Positions 14,223-36,734 of a DNA stretch of 64,000 bases are shown piece by piece (the first letter of the stretch is position 1; each line of letters opens with the position of its first letter). The DNA lies in the NCBI GenBank assembly GCA_023271875.1, contig JALPWY010000002.1, positions 1,251 to 65,250 on the forward strand, in the 5' to 3' direction. The notes under the pieces are model-generated. The model was given only the letters and a program-made list of their open reading frames with translations. It was not told where the DNA came from and made no database searches. The translations under genes and the position numbers were made by a program. This DNA is from Nitrospinaceae bacterium. GTDB lineage: Bacteria; Nitrospinota; Nitrospinia; Nitrospinales; VA-1.

Positions 14223-14891
14223 GTGGAACAAGAAGAAATTAAAGCAATCATTGAGAATATCCTTTTGGCCGCAGACCAACCAGTAAGCGAAACTCAGTTT
14301 AAAAATTTACTTGGTGGTGAAGTCGAAAAAGTTTCCTTTAAATCAGTTTTAGAAGAATTGATAAACGAGTATAGCTCGAGGAACTTGCAGATTCTTCAGG
14401 TCGCAGAGGGGTACCAGTTGTGCACGCGTCATGATTATTCTGATTGGGTTCGCAAGTTCCTGAAATTTGACAAAACGACAAAATTATCTCAGCCTAGTCT
14501 GGATACGCTTGCCATTATAGCTTATAAACAACCCTTGACTAAGGCAGAGGTTGAAGAGATTCGTGGTGTTGACTCGAGTGGTGTGGTCCGAACCTTGCTG
14601 GAAAAAAAAGTTATTTCTCCAGCAGGGCGCAAAAAAGTTCCAGGTCGGCCAATTATGTATCGAACTACACGTAAGTTCCTTGAATATTTCGGATTGAGGG
14701 ACTTGAGTGATTTGCCTACCTTGGAGGATTTTAAGGAGAGCGAGTTAGAGGGCCAGGTCTCCCCAGACCAAACAACACTACCATTTGATGAACTATCTGG
14801 AGATTCCGCTGAGGAAATGGTGGATACGGTTTCTGAGGTAGAAGCTCAGTCAACAGACCCTTCCGATTTTGATTCCTCGAGTGGTTCTTAA
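14223..14891 (+). CDS. scpB: SMC-Scp complex subunit ScpB
   Basis: LDTLAIIAYKQP, IRGVDS, GRP.MY.TT..FL..FGL. Confidence 0.95.
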   Translation: MEQEEIKAIIENILLAADQPVSETQFKNLLGGEVEKVSFKSVLEELINEYSSRNLQILQVAEGYQLCTRHDYSDWVRKFLKFDKTTKLSQPSLDTLAIIAYKQPLTKAEVEEIRGVDSSGVVRTLLEKKVISPAGRKKVPGRPIMYRTTRKFLEYFGLRDLSDLPTLEDFKESELEGQVSPDQTTLPFDELSGDSAEEMVDTVSEVEAQSTDPSDFDSSSGS

Positions 14892-15737: not shown

Positions 15738-16726
15738 TATTTAAAGAATTATTTCCAAAGGTTTGTTTTGGAGTAGCTTTGATTTTTATGATACTTGGGA
15801 AAACTTTTATTTCTTTTGCCCAGTTTGATTTTGATACGCCTTACGAGGTAAGCGCGGAAGTTGCGGTGGTGAATAACGATTTTGTTAAAGCTAGAAAAAA
15901 AGCTATCAAAATAGCTTTAAAATCTTCGCTAGAACAGAGCTTACGAGAAATTTTGGGGGATGATGAATTTCAACAAAATTGGCAGGAAATGCAAAGAATG
16001 TTGAAAGTATCTAATAAATATGTGAAATCCTATCGCTTTTTAGAAGCTCATGATGATTCTGTAGAGTTGATGAGTAGTATTAAGCTCGAAGTAAATTTGT
16101 TTCAGGAAGCGATTAGTAAAACCTTAAGCCGAAGGGGAGTTGCGGCAGGATTAGAAGGAATAGAGCAGATTATTATTCTAATTAATGAAAGTAGTTTGAG
16201 TTCTAATGGAGAATCAAATTTTTGGGAAGAAGCGCCGATTTCCGAAATGTTGTTAACTAGAAGTTTTGTAGAGGCAGGCATGCCTGTTGTGAGGAGAAAT
16301 GCTTTGCGTCACGAAATTTCTAAGAAAATGGTAGAGCGCGCAATAGGTGGTAATATTTCAGGCGCAGTGGATATAGGGTCGAAACTAGGAGCAGATATCG
16401 TTGTCATAGGGAAGGCCACCTCCTCTATGGTAGGTAGAAAAGGAGCGAATGAGCAAAAGATTCGAGTTGGGATCAATGTCAAGGTTGTTTCGTCTCGTCA
16501 GTCGATGGTAGTGGCGGCAAAAAGTGATTTTGCTACAGCTTCTGAAAATGAAATTTTTGCAAGTGAACTAGAAGCTTTTCGTCGCGCTGGGAAAAAAATA
16601 ACAAAATTTCTTATTCCCGCCATACAAGAACATTGGACACCGGAATCAAAAAAGAAAGAGGCCCAACGCACAGTTCCCCCAGTTTCTAAAATGGATAACC
16701 CACCGTTGCCTTTTGGTGATCTTTGA
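15734..16726 (+). CDS. Exported hypothetical protein (FlgT N-terminal/CsgG-like folds)
   Basis: Signal-like N-terminus, ARKKAI..AL..SLEQ helix, IG..LGADIVVIG motif. Confidence 0.65.
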   Translation: MIFKELFPKVCFGVALIFMILGKTFISFAQFDFDTPYEVSAEVAVVNNDFVKARKKAIKIALKSSLEQSLREILGDDEFQQNWQEMQRMLKVSNKYVKSYRFLEAHDDSVELMSSIKLEVNLFQEAISKTLSRRGVAAGLEGIEQIIILINESSLSSNGESNFWEEAPISEMLLTRSFVEAGMPVVRRNALRHEISKKMVERAIGGNISGAVDIGSKLGADIVVIGKATSSMVGRKGANEQKIRVGINVKVVSSRQSMVVAAKSDFATASENEIFASELEAFRRAGKKITKFLIPAIQEHWTPESKKKEAQRTVPPVSKMDNPPLPFGDL

Positions 16727-16727
16727 T

Positions 16728-17792
16728 ATGACTCGAGAGAGAAACACGCAAACAATATATTTTGTTATTGTCGGGGTTTTACTGGCCGTAATTTTTTTCT
16801 ACTTTTCTCGCCGTGTGCTCACGCCATTCTTCATCGCCTTTGCTTTGGCATATCTATTGGATCCAGTTACAGATCGATTAGAGTCTTTGAAAATTTCCAG
16901 AACCTTTGCAGTTTTGGTTCTAATGGCAGGAGTTTTTTCTCTTGTCACTGGGATTGGACTTTTGATTTTTCCATTGCTTAAACTACAGGCAGAACATTTG
17001 GTTTTTAACTTGCCCAATTATATTGCGATCATGCAAGAATGGATGTACCCATTATTAGGAGTAGTTGGTGAACCCGAGAAGATACAAGGAATTCTGAATA
17101 GAGAACTTCTAAAGGTCGGAGAACTTCCTCTTAAAGTAATTTCATCGGTCACGTCAATTTTATGGGGTTCGGTAGCAGGTTTGTTTAGTTTTATTTTACT
17201 TTTGGCTAATCTCGTGATTATTCCGGTGGTTATGTTTTACTTGCTTCGAGATTATGATCTGATAAATAAAAAAATGCTCAGTTTTGTTCCTGCAAGATCT
17301 AGGGAACAGGTGCTGCGTTTGATAAAGGAAATAGATGGGGTTCTTGCAGGTTTTGTCAGGGGACAATTAATAGTTGGTTTAATTATGGCGGGGCTTTATA
17401 GTATCGGGTTGTTTTTTTGTGGCACCCCAATGAGTTTGTTTATAGGTTTATTGGCGGGATTAGCTAGTTTGGTACCCTACCTAGGCTTAGTCTTTGGGTT
17501 TGTTCCAGCAGCGATATTAACTTTCATGCAGACTCAGGACTGGGTGCTTGTTTTTGGTGTGGCAGGAGTTTTTGCAGTGGTTCAGGGTTTAGAGGGTATG
17601 ATAATTACTCCGCGTATCGTCGGTGAAAAAATAGGGTTACATCCGGTAGCAATCATATTGGCTGTTTTGTTGGGAGCAGAGTTCTTTGGACTGGTGGGAA
17701 TCATAGTTTCGGTGCCTGTAGCGGCCGCACTCAACGTTCTTTTTACTCATGGGCTCAATGAGTACAAATCCTCTTCATTTTATACCTCTTAA
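16728..17792 (+). CDS. AI-2E family transporter
   Basis: PFFIAFALAYLLDP, FVRGQL, VPYLG, PRIVGEKIGLHP. Confidence 0.92.
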   Translation: MTRERNTQTIYFVIVGVLLAVIFFYFSRRVLTPFFIAFALAYLLDPVTDRLESLKISRTFAVLVLMAGVFSLVTGIGLLIFPLLKLQAEHLVFNLPNYIAIMQEWMYPLLGVVGEPEKIQGILNRELLKVGELPLKVISSVTSILWGSVAGLFSFILLLANLVIIPVVMFYLLRDYDLINKKMLSFVPARSREQVLRLIKEIDGVLAGFVRGQLIVGLIMAGLYSIGLFFCGTPMSLFIGLLAGLASLVPYLGLVFGFVPAAILTFMQTQDWVLVFGVAGVFAVVQGLEGMIITPRIVGEKIGLHPVAIILAVLLGAEFFGLVGIIVSVPVAAALNVLFTHGLNEYKSSSFYTS

Positions 17793-18022: not shown

Positions 18023-18394
18023 ATGACCATTCGTTCGATCCGTGTTAGTCATATTGTGTTATCGACCAAAGATATAGCTGACTTGTTGCTTGATAATCTC
18101 AAGTCCTGCGAAAGCAATGAACTGATGCTAAAAATGTTTTCTAAATTAGCGAAAAAGTATAGCGCTTGTGGAACCAGTAAAAAGGGCGGTGACCTTGGTT
18201 TTCTGGAATTCAATACAGCCGCTCCGGAGTTGGAAAAAGCTGCTATGCAGGCCCCTGTTGGAAAAGTATCCGGTCCTATTCAAAGTAAGTTCGGCTATCA
18301 TATTTTTGTCATTACTGAAGAAGAAAAAATGATTGACACGGGTATCGATGGTCTTACTGGTACTTCCATTGGTGCAGGAGACGGAACTCTATAA
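18023..18394 (+). CDS. ppiC: Parvulin-type peptidyl-prolyl isomerase
   Basis: SHIV, LAKKYS.C, GGDLG, SKFGYHI. Confidence 0.85.
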   Translation: MTIRSIRVSHIVLSTKDIADLLLDNLKSCESNELMLKMFSKLAKKYSACGTSKKGGDLGFLEFNTAAPELEKAAMQAPVGKVSGPIQSKFGYHIFVITEEEKMIDTGIDGLTGTSIGAGDGTL

Positions 18395-18420
18395 CCCCCC
18401 CTTTGTAATTTCTGGCAATC

Positions 18421-18810
18421 ATGCGTCTTTTAGGGATTCATCACATTGCATTGAATGTTCGTCACCTAGATAGAGCGGAAGGTTTTTATACTGATGTTCT
18501 GGGATTCAAAGTTTTACAAAGATTTTCCAAGGGTTTGCGTCATCTCATGCTAGATGCCGGAAATTCTCAGATTGCTTTGTTTGAAGTACCTGATTTAGAA
18601 ATGCAATTACACATAGAGGAACTTAGCGAAACAGGTTATATGCACTTTGCCTTTAAGATAGAGAAAAAAATGTTTCAATTGGCAGTAAAGAAACTTAGAG
18701 ATCATAATATTGATATTGGTGAGGGACCTGTTCGGCGGGGTGAAGGAGAATCGGTCTACTTCCAAGATTTGGATTGTAACCATCTAGAAATACATTGTGA
18801 TGACGAATAA
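18421..18810 (+). CDS. VOC/glyoxalase family protein
   Basis: IHHIALNV, FYTDVLG, HFAF, YFQDLD.N.LE. Confidence 0.9.
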   Translation: MRLLGIHHIALNVRHLDRAEGFYTDVLGFKVLQRFSKGLRHLMLDAGNSQIALFEVPDLEMQLHIEELSETGYMHFAFKIEKKMFQLAVKKLRDHNIDIGEGPVRRGEGESVYFQDLDCNHLEIHCDDE

Positions 18811-19870
18811 GATTCTTGAAAAAGCGCTCGATGGCGAACGAATCTCCCCTGAAGAAGCAGTCCGATTATTCGAAACCACGGACATGCTTTTGTTGGGAAA
18901 TATTGCTTCACGTATTTCCAGAAAAAAACTAAAAGAGCGAGTTGTAACTTACATTGTTGATCGCAATATAAATTATACAAATATTTGTATCACCGATTGT
19001 GCCTTTTGCGCCTTTTACAGGAAAGAAGATGATAAGGAAGCTTATGTTCACCCTTTTGAAACTATAGCTCAGAAAATAGAAGAAACCATTGCTCTGGGAG
19101 GGAGGCAAATTCTTCTGCAGGGAGGTCATAACATTAATCTGAAAATTGATTATTTTGAAGATTTATTTCGACGTATCAAAGAACGGTTTGACATACATTT
19201 GCACGCACTATCTCCGGCGGAGATAGTGCATACTGCAAAAATTTCGAAACTTACCATAATAGACACTCTTAACAGGTTAAACGATGCCGGGTTGGATAGC
19301 ATTCCTGGTGGCGGAGCTGAGATTTTAGTAGATCGCGTGCGTCAGAAAATAAGCCCGCATAAATGTTCGACCCGAGAATGGCTTGGTGTCATGGATTGTG
19401 CTCATGGTATGAATATACCCACGACTGCTACAATGATGTTTGGGCATGTGGAAGCCGTCGAAGATCGGGTGGAGCACCTTCGACGTATACGAGATCAACA
19501 GGATAAAACTATGGGATTTACTGCCTTTATTCCTTGGCCTTTTCAACCTGGTCGCACAGAGCTTGGTTTGGATCATGATATTAGTTCTCAAGTAACCGGA
19601 CTTGATTATCTGAAAACTTTGGCCATTAGTCGAATATTTTTGGATAATTTTGACAATCTACAATCATCGTGGGTGACTCAGGGGCCTAAGGTAGGGCAAA
19701 TGGCCTTATATTACGGTGCAAACGATATGGGAAGTACCATGTTAGAGGAGAATGTTGTGAGGGCGGCAGGTACTGTTCATTGCCTTAATGAAGAAGATAT
19801 TCGACGGATAATTACTGACAGTGGCTTCAAGCCTCAGCGAAGAAATATGAGATATGAGCGAGTTAATTAG
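18797..19870 (+). CDS. mqnC: Cyclic dehypoxanthinyl futalosine synthase
   Basis: VTYIVDRNINYTNIC...C.FCAF, PGGGAEIL, QSSWVTQG, GANDMGSTMLEENVV. Confidence 0.92.
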   Translation: MMTNKILEKALDGERISPEEAVRLFETTDMLLLGNIASRISRKKLKERVVTYIVDRNINYTNICITDCAFCAFYRKEDDKEAYVHPFETIAQKIEETIALGGRQILLQGGHNINLKIDYFEDLFRRIKERFDIHLHALSPAEIVHTAKISKLTIIDTLNRLNDAGLDSIPGGGAEILVDRVRQKISPHKCSTREWLGVMDCAHGMNIPTTATMMFGHVEAVEDRVEHLRRIRDQQDKTMGFTAFIPWPFQPGRTELGLDHDISSQVTGLDYLKTLAISRIFLDNFDNLQSSWVTQGPKVGQMALYYGANDMGSTMLEENVVRAAGTVHCLNEEDIRRIITDSGFKPQRRNMRYERVN

Positions 19871-19918
19871 TAATTTCTATAAAATAGGCCGGATTTCCTA
19901 CATATGCAACTGAGTGAA

Positions 19919-20734
19919 TTAAGCAGCTTTTTTTGAATCAGGAGAAGGTGAGAAGGTTTCTCTTCGATCCAAAGTATTTTGTAGGGCAACAGGATCAGCC
20001 TCTTGGTTAAATCTAGAATTGAGAAATGATTGCCTCAACGAATGGGGTGTAGCTAGTTTTTTTAACCCAGACGCAATAAGGGATTTTTTGAAAAATTTTG
20101 CGACTGCTCGTGTTGTTAGTGCACCACCCCGTTCGCTGGGAAATAAATATTGGCTAGTATTTTTAGCTCCGACCTGTCTTCCCAGTGAGTCCTTGAGGTG
20201 TTTTGAAAAAAAAGTGGTTCGCTTCTTTCCGTCAAGTCCCGGCACATGCAACATCAGTCTATCGAGATTGAGATGCTCCACTTTTACTTCCACTAATTCA
20301 GAAACTCTTAAGCCAGCGGAGTATGCTAGTTCAATCATTAGACGGTTCCTGATAGTTTTTGTGTGGCAGGTGATTTGATAAACTTCATTAGGGGTAAGAA
20401 CTATAGGTGCAGGACGTGCTTTTCTCGGCCGTTTAAACCCTGAAAGGTTCAGTTGTCGTCCAAATAATTCATAATAGAAAATTTCCATTGCCTTGGTCGC
20501 CTGGTCTATCGTTGACCTTGAAAACCCACTCTCGACAAGGTGGTCCAAGTGGTTCTTGATATCCTGTTCGGTGATATTTTGTAGATTAACTGGGCGGTTA
20601 AACCGAATAAAGGCTTGGGTTTGTCCAAGGTATGCTTTTACAGTTCCAGAGCTATATCCGCACAGTTTCATATGATTTTGCATCATATTTAAAAAATGAA
20701 TCAGACTTGGAATAGTAATGATAGCTGTATTCAC
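19919..20734 (-). CDS. Integron-integrase/Xer-like tyrosine recombinase homologue lacking the catalytic His and Tyr
   Basis: N-terminal SAM-like domain (YS..T..AY), RPRK, YSAGLRVSE, YLFP, TPHSLR; LGH box and Tyr absent; AGGAG RBS before GTG. Confidence 0.85.
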   Translation of the reverse strand: MNTAIITIPSLIHFLNMMQNHMKLCGYSSGTVKAYLGQTQAFIRFNRPVNLQNITEQDIKNHLDHLVESGFSRSTIDQATKAMEIFYYELFGRQLNLSGFKRPRKARPAPIVLTPNEVYQITCHTKTIRNRLMIELAYSAGLRVSELVEVKVEHLNLDRLMLHVPGLDGKKRTTFFSKHLKDSLGRQVGAKNTSQYLFPSERGGALTTRAVAKFFKKSLIASGLKKLATPHSLRQSFLNSRFNQEADPVALQNTLDRRETFSPSPDSKKAA

Positions 20735-20805
20735 GAATGTGTCTCCTGAAGCGGAGCGTCAGCGACGCAATGGTTATTAGTTTTTTTGGCGAGAATCATG
20801 CCCCA

Positions 20806-20834
20806 AGTATAACCAATAATACTAATAAAATCAA
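20806..20834 (-). promoter_or_regulatory. Sigma70-like promoter of the recombinase homologue
   Basis: TTGATT-17 nt-TATACT on the minus strand, with an AT-rich UP-like tract upstream. Confidence 0.6.
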
Positions 20835-20952
20835 TAATTTAATAAATATATGAGGGATAGCGGCCTTAAGGTTTGCCACTCAGTGGCACACACTTCGAAC
20901 AGCGATTTAAACGTTATCCACTTAAATGACAGGGTGCGTGATTGCTTCGAAA

Positions 20953-22491
20953 TTATAAATCATACTTTGCAAAGTGAGTTTTGATGGCTGAGAAAAGACC
21001 TGTAACGGTGTATTGGTTGGGGACGATAGTAACTTTAAGTCCACGGTCCTCTGCAGTTTTTTGAGTGACGGGTCCGATGCAGGCAACAGTGATCTTGTTA
21101 AGTTTTTCATGATGTTCTTTATTAAGGCGATCAAGAAAATTAGTTACTGTTGAGGATGATGTGAAAGTGATCACATCAATAGTCCCTTCATTCAGCCGTT
21201 TAAGAAAGCTGGACCCCGGTTGTTCAGGTAGAATTATTTGGTAAGCAGGAACCACGTCAATGCTGGCTCCCATTTTACGCAATGTGTTCGGTAAAACTTC
21301 ACGAGCAACACTGGCACGTGGCAAAAGAAATTTTTTCCCTTCGATATTGTCCTTACCTATACACTCAATTAACGATTCGGCTATGTAGTTTTCAGGAACT
21401 GTATCGACTCGAATATTTAATTTGAGGACGGCTTGTTCTGTTTTAGGACCAATCGCATAAACGCGAACTCCTTTGAGTTCTCGGATATCTTTGTTTTTTT
21501 CCCTTAGTCGCTGAGAAAAAAAATGTACCCCATTTGCACTGGTGAAAATTAGCCCATCATAACTGGATAATTCTTCAAGAGATTGATCTAGTGGACCCCA
21601 GTCTACTGGAGGAATGGTCTTAATGGATGAATAGAGAAATGCTTCGGCTCCTTGTTCCTCAAGCATATGAATAAATGATTCTGCTTGATCTTCGGCTCGG
21701 GTTACAACAAATGTTTTTCCAAACAATGGAAGAGTCTCGTACCAGTCAGTAATCGGTTTTAGATTAACTACTTCGCCAATGATAGTCAGGGTTGGAGGTT
21801 GGATTTTTTCTTTCGTGGTGATATCGACTATGGTGTTAAGAGTACCAACCCAAGTTTTCTGGCGGGAGGTGGTACCCCATTGAATAACCGCGACAGGAGT
21901 ATCCGGTTTTTTTTTGAATTTAATAAGCTGTTCAACGATTCTGGGTAGCTTGCGCGCACCCATAAGAAAAACCAATGTTCCTGTGCGAGTAGAAATATTT
22001 TCCCAATCAAGCTTTAAATGTTCTTCTCCGTGTTCGTTGCTTCCGGTAATGATTGAAATAGTTGATGCGTGATCGCGATGTGTAAGAGGAATTCCTGCGT
22101 ATGCAGAAACGCCGACGGGGGAGGGAATTCCGGGAACAATGGTAAAATGAATGTCCGCTTCCTTAAGAGCTTGTACTTCTTCACCTCCACGGCCGAAAAT
22201 AAAAGGATCTCCTCCTTTTAAACGAACAACAATTTTTCCTGCACGGGCACTATTAATCAGCAATTCATTGATTTTATTTTGCGTGACTGTGGCATACCCT
22301 GCCTTTTTCCCAACATATATAAGTTCCGCTGAGCTAGCGAAACAAAGTATGTTTGAGTTGACCAAGTGATCATATATAACTACGTCTGCCCGCACTAACC
22401 AGTCTTTTCCTCTAAGAGTCAGAAGTCCAATATCACCGGGACCGGCGCCCACTAAAATAACTTGTCCTTTTTTCAAGTTTGGTTCAGTCAT
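20953..22491 (-). CDS. cobA-hemD: Uroporphyrinogen-III C-methyltransferase / uroporphyrinogen-III synthase fusion
   Basis: GAGPGD, RLKGGDPFIFGRGGEE; C-terminal VTRA, FTSANGV, IGPKT, FTSSSTV. Confidence 0.95.
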   Translation of the reverse strand: MTEPNLKKGQVILVGAGPGDIGLLTLRGKDWLVRADVVIYDHLVNSNILCFASSAELIYVGKKAGYATVTQNKINELLINSARAGKIVVRLKGGDPFIFGRGGEEVQALKEADIHFTIVPGIPSPVGVSAYAGIPLTHRDHASTISIITGSNEHGEEHLKLDWENISTRTGTLVFLMGARKLPRIVEQLIKFKKKPDTPVAVIQWGTTSRQKTWVGTLNTIVDITTKEKIQPPTLTIIGEVVNLKPITDWYETLPLFGKTFVVTRAEDQAESFIHMLEEQGAEAFLYSSIKTIPPVDWGPLDQSLEELSSYDGLIFTSANGVHFFSQRLREKNKDIRELKGVRVYAIGPKTEQAVLKLNIRVDTVPENYIAESLIECIGKDNIEGKKFLLPRASVAREVLPNTLRKMGASIDVVPAYQIILPEQPGSSFLKRLNEGTIDVITFTSSSTVTNFLDRLNKEHHEKLNKITVACIGPVTQKTAEDRGLKVTIVPNQYTVTGLFSAIKTHFAKYDL

Positions 22492-23272
22492 CACATGAAT
22501 GGATATAGTTAGAAAGAACTGCGAAATCTTCAATTGATAATGTTTCTCCTCTGCGATTCAAATTGATTCCAGCCAGTTTTATTGTCCCATTTTGGTTTTG
22601 AAACAAATTTTTCCACTCCGTAAGATTGTTTTTAAGCATTTTTCGTTTATGCAAAAAAGAGGCGTTAACTACAGAAAAAAATGTTTTCAAGTTGTCAACT
22701 TGCACCCTTGAAGTGGTTAGTGGAGTTAGTTTTATAACCGAAGAATCAATTTTCGGTTTCGGTGAAAAAGCTTCTTTACTCACCTCTATAAGTCGTTCCA
22801 CTTCGCAGTAAAACTGAATAAAAACAGAAAGTGATCCATAGTCACGTGTGCCCGGGAGTGCAACCAGACGGTCGACGACTTCTTTTTGTAACATTACAGT
22901 GATGCTAGTAAAGTATTCGCGGTAATGAATAAGTCTCTTGAGGATATGAGTTGCGGCATAGTATGGTAAATTTGACACGACTTGACACTGGTTTCCTAAT
23001 GCGTTGTAGTTATACTTCAAGGCATCTGTTTGAATAAGTTGAAAGTTTTCGTATGCTTTAAAGCTGTCCGTTAATGCCAAGCAAAGTCCGGAATCTATTT
23101 CAATGGCAGTTAGTGATTTAGCTTTTTTCAGCAGAAGAGCAGTGAGAATTCCTTTTCCGGGGCCAATTTCTAATACATGCTGATTACTAGAAATACCTGC
23201 TTGATAAATAATTTTGCGAGCGATGTCCTCGTTGATTAGATAGTTCTGGCCCAAGGGTGGTTTTTTCATCAT
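22484..23272 (-). CDS. rsmA: 16S rRNA adenine dimethyltransferase
   Basis: LGQNYL, EIGPGKG, SNLPY, MLQKEV. Confidence 0.95.
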   Translation of the reverse strand: MMKKPPLGQNYLINEDIARKIIYQAGISSNQHVLEIGPGKGILTALLLKKAKSLTAIEIDSGLCLALTDSFKAYENFQLIQTDALKYNYNALGNQCQVVSNLPYYAATHILKRLIHYREYFTSITVMLQKEVVDRLVALPGTRDYGSLSVFIQFYCEVERLIEVSKEAFSPKPKIDSSVIKLTPLTTSRVQVDNLKTFFSVVNASFLHKRKMLKNNLTEWKNLFQNQNGTIKLAGINLNRRGETLSIEDFAVLSNYIHSCDD

Positions 23273-35632: not shown

Positions 35633-36734
35633 ATGACTCTGGATGATTTAAGGAAAAAATATCAAGATCAAAACAGGCGGATAGATCGGCTTAGGGGGTA
35701 TCTTTGACGTCGTCAATAAACTAAAAGAAATTGAAGATTTAGATAAAAAAACCACGCAGACAGATTTTTGGGAAGACAACGAGTCTGCTCAAAAAATTCT
35801 CCAAAAACGTTCTGCTTGTCAACGAATTGTCGAGTCGTGGGAGAATCTCCATAAAGATGATCAAAATAACAGCGCCCTTTTGGAATTGGCTGAAGAGGCG
35901 CAAGATGAATCGCTGCTGAATGAAATGGAAAGTACGGTCAACGAGTTGGAAATCAAGTTGGCAAGTGCCGAGGTTAAAGCCATTCTCTCAGGAGAGAGTG
36001 ATTTTAACAATGCTATTGTATCAATTAATTCAGGTGCTGGGGGAACAGAATCTCAAGACTGGGCGCAAATGCTGTTAAGAATGTATACACGTTGGGGTGA
36101 GCGGAACGGATACGAAACAGAAGTTTTGGATATTCAGTACGGAGAAGAAGCAGGAATCAAAAGTGCTACCGTTATATTTTCAGGAGATTACGCTTTCGGT
36201 TATCTGAAGGCGGAAATTGGGGTGCATCGATTAGTGCGAATTTCTCCTTATGATGCGAACAAAAGAAGGCACACATCTTTTGCGTCGGTCTTTGTTTTCT
36301 CCGAAGTGGATGAAAGTGTGGAGGTTGAGGTGAAAGATGAAGATTTGAAGGTTGATGTATACCGCGCATCTGGTCCTGGGGGACAGGGGGTAAACACAAC
36401 CGACTCTGCCGTGAGACTCACCCATATTCCTACAGGTATAGTAGTGCAGTGTCAGAACGAAAGATCTCAACATAAGAACAGGTCTTCCGCGATGAGAGTT
36501 CTTAAGGCCCGGATTTTTGAAGCAGAACAAGAAAAGCTTAACGCCGAAAAAAAAGAGCAGGAGCAGTCAAAAAAGAAAATTGAATGGGGAAGTCAAATTC
36601 GTTCATATGTCCTTCAGCCCTATCGTCTAGTTAAAGATCTTCGGACAAACCATGAAATGGGAAACGTCGATGCAGTTCTAGATGGTGATATTGGTTCTTT
36701 CATAGAAGCTTATTTGCTTACAAATAATAACTAA
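35633..36734 (+). CDS. prfB: Peptide chain release factor 2 (programmed +1 frameshift)
   Basis: ORF0 from ATG 35633 ends ...RGYL-TGA; the +1 frame continues DVVNKL..FWED; GGTESQDW, SPY and GGQ motifs. Confidence 0.97.
35693..35708 (+). promoter_or_regulatory. RF2 programmed frameshift cassette
   Basis: AGGGGG-TAT-CTT-TGA-C, the canonical internal SD, slippery codon and weak stop. Confidence 0.97.

Follow-up and report, generated by a model that had tools for sequence, protein, structure and literature searches.

A tyrosine recombinase-like gene without the nucleophile

The DNA analysed here, referred to as the window, is a stretch of 64,000 nucleotides from a Nitrospinaceae bacterium (GCA_023271875.1, contig JALPWY010000002.1, positions 1,251 to 65,250). 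On its minus strand, at 19919..20734, it carries an open reading frame (ORF) for a Xer/IntI-like protein of 271 amino acids (aa) that lacks the catalytic tyrosine (Tyr) of tyrosine recombinases. The frame starts with GTG, ends with TAA and is free of internal stop codons, and an AGGAG ribosome-binding site (20743..20747, minus strand) lies 8 nucleotides before the GTG, as the original prediction for this locus had read it. Further upstream, at 20806..20834 on the same strand, is a promoter-like TTGATT-17-TATACT sequence. The gene is convergent with mqnC, with 48 nucleotides between the two stop codons, and cobA-hemD lies on its other side.

The protein has the tyrosine recombinase fold, with an N-terminal SAM-like domain and a catalytic-type domain that are seen both in Pfam matches and in an AlphaFold 2 (AF2) model. 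The N-terminal core-binding domain (aa 14-95, 20450..20695, minus strand) matches PF13495 with an E-value of 7e-14, in agreement with the SAM-like DNA-binding domain that had been predicted, and the AF2 model places helices at residues 8-24, 29-46, 56-68 and 73-91. The catalytic-type domain, which is devoid of the nucleophile (aa 112-256, 19967..20401, minus strand), matches PF00589 with an E-value of 1.2e-23. Both matches exceed the gathering scores of their models. The PF00589 match spans profile positions 2-155 of 172, and the Tyr-bearing segment falls outside it.

The motifs GLRVSE (residues 141-146), GLDGKKR (166-172), HSLR (231-234) and LDR (255-257) all read as first reported, and no Tyr occurs anywhere downstream of HSLR in the 271-aa protein. 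Arg143 of the box I motif GLRVSE (20306..20308; this and the following positions are on the minus strand) and the box II motif HxxR, His231-Ser-Leu-Arg234 (20033..20044), are present. The catalytic pentad R-K-H-R-H/W is nevertheless incomplete. Leu167 (20234..20236) stands at the first Lys of the GKGxKxR hairpin, which we take to be the catalytic lysine, and Arg257 (19964..19966) stands at the second catalytic His/Trp, where LGH has become LDR. Asp266 (19937..19939) occupies the alignment column, that of RIYTKV, in which Tyr-bearing relatives have their nucleophile, and the protein terminates 5 residues past it. The C-terminal tail (aa 257-271, 19922..19966) ends in SPDSKKAA and is predicted to be disordered. 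A hidden LGH..Y segment was absent from all three frames 3′ of the gene. Tyrosine recombinases are described as requiring the Tyr nucleophile in addition to the R-K-H-R-H/W pentad (PMC8138268). Because the nucleophilic Tyr is missing, we infer that the covalent 3′-phosphotyrosyl intermediate cannot form and that catalysis has been lost.

The tyrosine-less proteins form one clade

Searching 5.8 billion proteins yielded 268 matches at E <= 0.001. All family counts rest on the best 120 of these 268 matches, which together with the window protein make up 121 rows; the 111 rows of at least 243 aa were counted as full-length. The LGH...Y ending is missing in 94 of the 111 full-length rows and present in 17. 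Among the 94 Tyr-less rows, Arg143 and Arg234 are found in all 94 and Arg172 and His231 in 93 each. Lys at position 167 occurs in a single row, and His at position 257 in none, compared with 17/17 of the Tyr-bearing proteins. Some Tyr is present after HxxR in 6 of the 94 rows, never at the aligned nucleophile position, and three of these six bear long unrelated extensions.

Conservation over the 94 Tyr-less proteins is highest in the catalytic-type domain, which has a mean top-residue frequency of 0.74 and 35 positions conserved at >=98%. The corresponding values are 0.59 and 9 positions for the N-terminal domain, and 0.44 and 0 positions for the tail. The closest relatives of the window protein show 86-97% identity, and relatives among the matches listed, down to about 59% identity, have a length of about 271 aa. 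Where source names are given, they are Candidatus Nitromaritima (67% identity), metagenome-assembled genomes (MAGs) of Nitrospinae and Nitrospinaceae, and Candidatus Nitrohelix. The tails are wholly different between Tyr-less subclades (SPDSKKAA, LLGRRAL, LLGLRRTKPVKLVG): 49 of the 94 rows have a window-like ..SPDSKKAA tail, 14 have LLGRRAL and 27 have LLGLRR.., and the SPDSKKAA ending is conserved solely inside the window's own subclade.

For the tree, a pool of 120 rows was assembled from the window protein, 110 full-length matches and 9 of 11 outgroup ORFs; L017 and L021 were left out, their recombinase part not having been isolated. Thinning at 88% identity reduced the pool to 81 rows, and the root was placed on 8 ordinary recombinases. 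In this rooted tree, the 58 Tyr-less rows form a single clade with a support of 96 in the Shimodaira-Hasegawa-like approximate likelihood ratio test (SH-aLRT), and the trait changes once. The same result was obtained after removing all columns beyond window residue 250. The sister group and the deeper branches consist of Tyr-bearing proteins ending in LLGH...Y(T/S/A)K. Since the one Tyr-less clade is nested within Tyr-bearing relatives from the phylum Nitrospinota, a single ancient loss of the Tyr would be enough to explain all Tyr-less forms. Close relatives with an intact LGH..Y ending, named in the original prediction as the sign of ordinary decay, were not found; such relatives occur only outside the Tyr-less clade, at no more than 50% identity and in other genomes.

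In a wider search, the profile of alignment A1 was compared with 1.84 billion representatives. Beyond the family, it matches mostly ordinary Tyr-bearing recombinases: the full HxxR...GH...Y pattern is present in 141 of the 149 matches listed other than P0027. The remaining eight comprise P0121, which has GH but no Tyr, three proteins with Tyr but a variant first His, and four that are apparently truncated. P0121 (276 aa) is the second-best family representative; it keeps LLGH and has no Tyr after it, and may be an intermediate between Tyr-bearing and Tyr-less forms or else a frameshifted record. The nearest relatives from outside the Nitrospinota are L014:5929-6783, from a Candidatus Aegiribacteria MAG (41% identity), and P0122. 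Both keep LLGH...Y and carry RTLR in place of HxxR; their catalytic set is thus also incomplete, but in another way.

Purifying selection on the tyrosine-less gene

Selection was assessed by the ratio of nonsynonymous to synonymous substitution rates (dN/dS), using the method of Nei and Gojobori (NG86). Because the available DNA, taken from species representatives, encodes proteins at most 52% identical to the window protein, the ratio had to be determined for other Tyr-less subclades than that of the window. For three pairs of loci, dN/dS was compared with that of the neighbouring mqnC: L004/L005 gave 0.068 for the Tyr-less gene and 0.049 for mqnC, L001/L002 gave 0.080 and 0.088, and L003/L008 gave 0.031 and 0.028. 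Two additional pairs, L005/L007 and L004/L007, gave 0.035 and 0.051 for the Tyr-less gene. In five further Tyr-less subclade pairs dS was saturated, and no dN/dS value was obtained. The ratios are similar for the N-terminal domain (codons 1-100) and the catalytic-type domain (codons 105-end). Tyr-bearing pairs gave 0.034 (L010/L012) and 0.051 (L011/L012); L010/L011 was saturated.

The Tyr-less gene is under purifying selection, with dN/dS values of 0.03-0.08 that are level with those of mqnC. The value below 1 that had been proposed as a check on maintenance was thus obtained for both domains. Given the low dN/dS and the high conservation of the catalytic-type domain, the gene is not a pseudogene. 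The description of the recombinase as dead but maintained agrees with a Tyr loss shared by one clade and with this constraint, where 'dead' would follow from the missing nucleophile.

Resemblance to known recombinase families

None of the curated NCBIfam cut-offs is reached by the protein. The XerA model NF040815 ranks first, with 148.7 bits against a cut-off of 220. The XerC model TIGR02224 gives 113.1 bits against 335.15 and the XerD model TIGR02225 gives 110 against 329.6. For the IntI models, the scores are 116.5 bits against 265 (TIGR02249) and 79 against 435 (NF011946), so that membership of the integron integrases fails. The model for truncated streptococcal XerD, NF002685, gives 19.7 bits against 178. 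Among solved structures, Pyrococcus XerA (4a8e) is the best sequence match with an E-value of 6e-18, followed by IntI4 (2a3v). The alignment with IntI4 is split, with query residues 190-211 opposite chain residues 183-247; 20 residues of the protein stand against 63 of the chain (184-246), and about 43 residues of IntI4 have no counterpart in the protein. This gap region is presumably the site of the IntI-specific insertion in the catalytic domain.

The AF2 model, computed from an alignment of 23 sequences, has a mean predicted local distance difference test (pLDDT) score of 85.7, with the final 14 residues below 50. In a Foldseek search with this model, IntI4 (2a3v) was the top match (E 5e-16), followed by XerA (5hxy/4a8e, E 4e-14); lower matches included lambda Int, XerH, Tn1549 Int and Cre. 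The protein has a genuine two-lobed tyrosine recombinase fold of the XerA/IntI kind and is neither an integron integrase nor a curated Xer protein. The earlier label 'integron-integrase-like' is apt as a statement of nearest-subfamily resemblance and does not extend to IntI membership. An integron integrase was rejected as a candidate, as the scores lie below all cut-offs, the IntI insertion is lacking and no cassettes are nearby. The flanking mqnC and cobA-hemD, the latter 218 nucleotides away, leave no room for attI or cassettes, although no dedicated attC search was made.

PHROGs matches were restricted to generic integrase families. None of the PADLOC anti-phage families matched at E <= 0.01, and an Rfam scan of 19500-21300 gave no match at E <= 1.

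One match to a solved structure lies outside the recombinases. Chain 14 of PDB entry 9i5v, a 401-aa Porphyromonas gingivalis 'RaiA', matches aa 57-256 of the protein over chain residues 55-269 (E 3e-12). This chain looks like a tyrosine recombinase-like domain fused to a hibernation-factor domain. According to the structure report, only 34 residues of this RaiA are modelled on the ribosome (PMC12123416).

Genomic setting

The gene was located in 13 Nitrospinota loci (L001-L013), each from a different assembly. Every one of the 13 assemblies carries a single copy, and the Tyr-bearing and Tyr-less forms never occur together in one of them. In the window, its neighbours are mqnC (radical SAM and CofH/MqnC C-terminal region) and cobA-hemD (TP_methylase and HEM4). 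A scan of the other 51 window ORFs revealed no further recombinase, transposase or mobile-element domain, in keeping with the earlier statement that no cassette or island is adjacent, although no dedicated attC search was made.

The syntenic orthologues that had been proposed as a check were found, with the Tyr loss conserved: 9 of the 13 loci (L001-L008, L013) have the gene and mqnC in convergent orientation. The gap between the two genes is 9-225 nucleotides in five of these loci and 0.9-5.2 kb in four. Past mqnC, glyoxalase-like and ppiC-like genes and cobA-hemD follow in 8 of the 9 loci, succeeded by ksgA and pdxA to the extent that each locus includes them; the L007 locus stops inside mqnC. 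On the other side, L001, L002, L004, L005 and L007 share a co-directional upstream string of dcd, scpB, an rluB-like gene, a gene of unknown function and an AI-2E permease gene, which leads into the gene itself. L006 is cut inside rluB, and L003 and L008 have other genes upstream. The window holds the whole upstream gene set, with scpB at 14223-14891 on the plus strand, in a string broken by an inversion. A four-gene block of ppiC-like, glyoxalase-like, mqnC and Tyr-less genes (18023..20734) is inverted relative to L001, L002 and L004-L007, with breakpoints between the AI-2E permease gene (16713-17792) and cobA-hemD (20953-22533). Because the block is inverted relative to these six related Nitrospinaceae loci, gene order indicates that the mqnC side is ancestral and that the cobA-hemD side is new and arose by local inversion. 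The reported location between mqnC and cobA-hemD is therefore correct for the window, but only its mqnC half would reflect an old arrangement.

The Tyr-less locus L009 and the Tyr-bearing loci L010-L012 have no neighbours in common with the window, and phage or transposon genes were not seen around these four. The divergence of the protein tracks that of mqnC (r = 0.85 over 28 non-independent pairs from 8 genomes). Since the two diverge together, the pattern fits vertical descent.

In the window and five related loci, scpB is preceded by the dCTP deaminase gene and not by scpA.

The upstream region

The promoter-like sequence of the window had been described as near-consensus. It is present and has counterparts upstream of orthologues; by itself, however, it is not above chance, as a promoter scan gave 3 sites compared with 3.4 +/- 1.8 in shuffled sequences. 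In all five loci of one subclade, TTGAC(C/G)-17-TATATT lies 112-155 nucleotides before the start codon, and similar sites are visible elsewhere. A search for operators covered the upstream regions of the window and nine loci. A related promoter-like 10-mer with at most one mismatch occurs in 9 of the 10 upstream regions compared.

Directly 3′ of the -10 box, one subclade carries a palindrome or hairpin of the type AGCGGAAC-N5-GTTCCGCT with 9-bp arms (L003:5867-5889, L004:5899-5921, L005:5829-5851, L007:5855-5877, L008:5873-5895). A two-sided change is seen in 1 of its 9 pairs. This element might serve as an operator or form a stem in the 5′ RNA. As a candidate for a conserved operator it was rejected, being confined to the one subclade and absent from the window. 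The window has a near-perfect 7-1-7 palindrome of its own, TGCCACT-N-AGTGGCA at 20871-20891, between the cobA-hemD stop codon and the promoter-like site. No T run follows it, and it was not found upstream of orthologues.

A putative non-cleaving DNA-binding protein

In active enzymes, the Arg-His-Arg triad grips the scissile phosphate. Because the clamp and this phosphate-holding triad are kept and the Tyr is lost, we consider it likely that the protein is a non-cleaving, site-specific DNA-binding clamp descended from a Xer/IntI-type recombinase. It would be the vertically inherited, single-copy descendant of a Nitrospinota Xer/IntI-type tyrosine recombinase. In the ancestor of the one clade, the segment with the second His and the nucleophilic Tyr would have been lost and the hairpin Lys no longer retained, while the C-shaped DNA clamp kept its two lobes and the Arg-His-Arg triad persisted. 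The protein may thus work without strand exchange, by occupying or bending a core site of the recombinase type, either as a regulator or to help organise or segregate the chromosome.

Several points weigh against this assignment. The invariant triad would also agree with a role inside a catalytic complex, and besides the promoter-like 10-mer no clade-wide motif was found upstream of the gene in the window and the nine loci. The dN/dS pairs were drawn from Tyr-less subclades other than the window's own, for which the evidence is at the protein level only (49 of the 94 rows, with the AA-type tail). Both trees were obtained by a quick search and carry SH-aLRT support only, with no bootstrap.

The first of these points leads to the possibility that the protein is a non-cleaving subunit of a recombination complex, paired on DNA with an active Xer. 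It could be the silent member of a XerC/XerD-like heterotetramer, or provide an Arg-His-Arg pocket for a Tyr in trans, as in Flp. Each residue of the triad is kept in at least 93 of the 94 Tyr-less proteins, constraint is strongest in the catalytic-type domain, and the dominant-negative or partner function suggested in the original prediction fits this pattern. In Xer-type proteins, the C-terminal segment carries the Tyr helix as well as the helix exchanged between subunits (compare XerA 4a8e). In the Tyr-less protein, however, the segment past the last conserved helix is missing; moreover, a second recombinase gene was found neither in the window nor next to the gene in any of the 13 loci, and a Tyr-bearing partner was never seen in the same assembly. 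We regard such a subunit as quite improbable. An alternative nucleophile, a Ser or Thr of the tail or a water molecule, could in principle make use of the intact phosphate-binding triad, so that the protein would still be a recombinase or nuclease. Since the tails differ completely between subclades, there is no conserved substitute nucleophile; the tails are also predicted to be disordered, and the general-acid Lys is not retained either, which makes this explanation very improbable. Still less can be said for ordinary decay, in which a recently truncated recombinase pseudogene would have its frame still open by chance. The protein is indeed short and has neither the Tyr nor the second His nor the Lys, but the same loss in 94 of 111 full-length homologues marks one old clade, dN/dS is low, and the orthologues agree in length, start codon, promoter and position. 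To the extent that sequences can decide, the shared loss in one clade and the low dN/dS refute decay.

A more specific role would be in chromosome organisation: bound to dif-like sites, a dedicated form that has given up recombination would block Smc-ScpAB or unload it in the manner of XerD of Bacillus subtilis. The gene ends the co-directional dcd-scpB string in 5 of the 13 loci, and the window holds the same genes including scpB in its rearranged order. It has been reported that scpA/scpB adjoin xerD in most Bacilli (PMC8136486) and that XerD unloads Smc-ScpAB at XDS sites (PMC11840125, PMC8357415, PMC12322038). On the other hand, three unrelated genes separate scpB from the Tyr-less gene, and the link is missing in L003, L008 and L009-L012 and broken in the window. 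Neither scpA nor smc was seen, scpA being absent from the window ORFs. In addition, the gene is probably not at a terminus, with the GC skew positive over the whole window and showing no switch, and XerA of Thermococcus is described as dispensable for the dif-associated boundary (PMC11840125). A complex prediction of aa 1-260 of the protein with aa 1-180 of the window ScpB gave a score of 0.00 in a run that had no controls, and speaks neither for nor against binding. The unloading by XerD is reportedly independent of catalysis. The loose scpB linkage is a weak lead towards such a role, which we consider unlikely. In a related and similarly doubtful form, the protein would be a natural separation-of-function Xer, whose Arg-His-Arg pocket clamps a specific chromosomal site and which has become a dedicated organiser, for instance a stop or unloader for Smc-ScpAB; a bolder variant would have it share an active site and take the Tyr in trans from another recombinase. 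If this were true, the structural, non-catalytic job of Xer proteins would be old enough to outlast the enzyme.

Comparison with known systems

The Tyr-less protein shares with XerA, XerC and XerD the two-domain fold, a PF13495-type N-terminal domain, the box I Arg and the box II HxxR, as well as the chromosomal, single-copy and housekeeping-like context of Xer proteins. Unlike XerA, XerC and XerD, it lacks the Tyr, the second His and a conserved hairpin Lys, and it ends about 25-30 residues early. With IntI it has the type of N-terminal domain in common, and IntI4 is its top structural match, but it differs in lacking the Tyr, the IntI insertion region and any cassettes. Like B. subtilis XerD, it is a Xer-type protein for which a site-specific job besides strand exchange is proposed and which has a genomic link to scp genes. 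XerD, however, is a full recombinase, and the scpB link found here is loose and partial.

Two other tyrosine recombinase derivatives have moved away from recombination in a comparable manner. The streptococcal and lactococcal 'XerD', YnbA, is reported to be a conserved chromosomal homologue without the extreme C-terminus and with two of the R-H-R-Y residues missing; according to the same report it does not recombine the host dif site, and its function is given as unknown (PMC1914069). The Nitrospinota family likewise lacks the C-terminus and some catalytic residues. It differs in lacking only the Y of R-H-R-Y and in belonging to a different phylum. The NF002685 match reaches only 19.7 bits; YnbA is of independent origin and an analogue, of which the present family is not a member. 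TnsF of Tn6022-like Tn7 elements is described as a tyrosine recombinase derivative that has lost the Tyr chamber and selects DNA sites, with its active ancestor Tsy extant (PMC10293859). Similarly, Tyr-bearing relatives survive in sister lineages of the Tyr-less clade. In contrast to TnsF, the protein has no zinc fingers and no tandem core-binding domains, and no transposon genes lie nearby among the 51 window ORFs.

The family appears to be a phylum-level, independent case of a known but little-studied kind, in which tyrosine recombinases are kept for a use other than recombination. Our literature searches found no description of a Tyr-less Nitrospinota family. In genome annotation, tyrosine recombinases nearly always figure as enzymes or as signs of mobile elements, and yet this Tyr-less clade, found across much of the Nitrospinota in a lineage of marine nitrite oxidisers, has been without its nucleophile over a long period of evolution and is constrained like a core biosynthetic gene. 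Labels such as 'XerD' or 'integrase' on these genes, which occur among the source names of the matches, are misleading and should not be read as pointing to integrons, prophages or systems for dimer resolution. The surviving Tyr-bearing sisters provide a natural experiment on what the fold does when it does not cut and on why the Arg-His-Arg triad would be needed. If Tyr-less genomes contain no other Xer protein, it would have to be asked by what route chromosome dimers are resolved in these abundant marine nitrite oxidisers.

Other features of the window

A release-factor ORF lies at 35880-36734 on the plus strand, and its PCRF match begins only at profile position 59. This is what prfB with a programmed +1 frameshift would look like, with a short upstream part of the gene in another frame.

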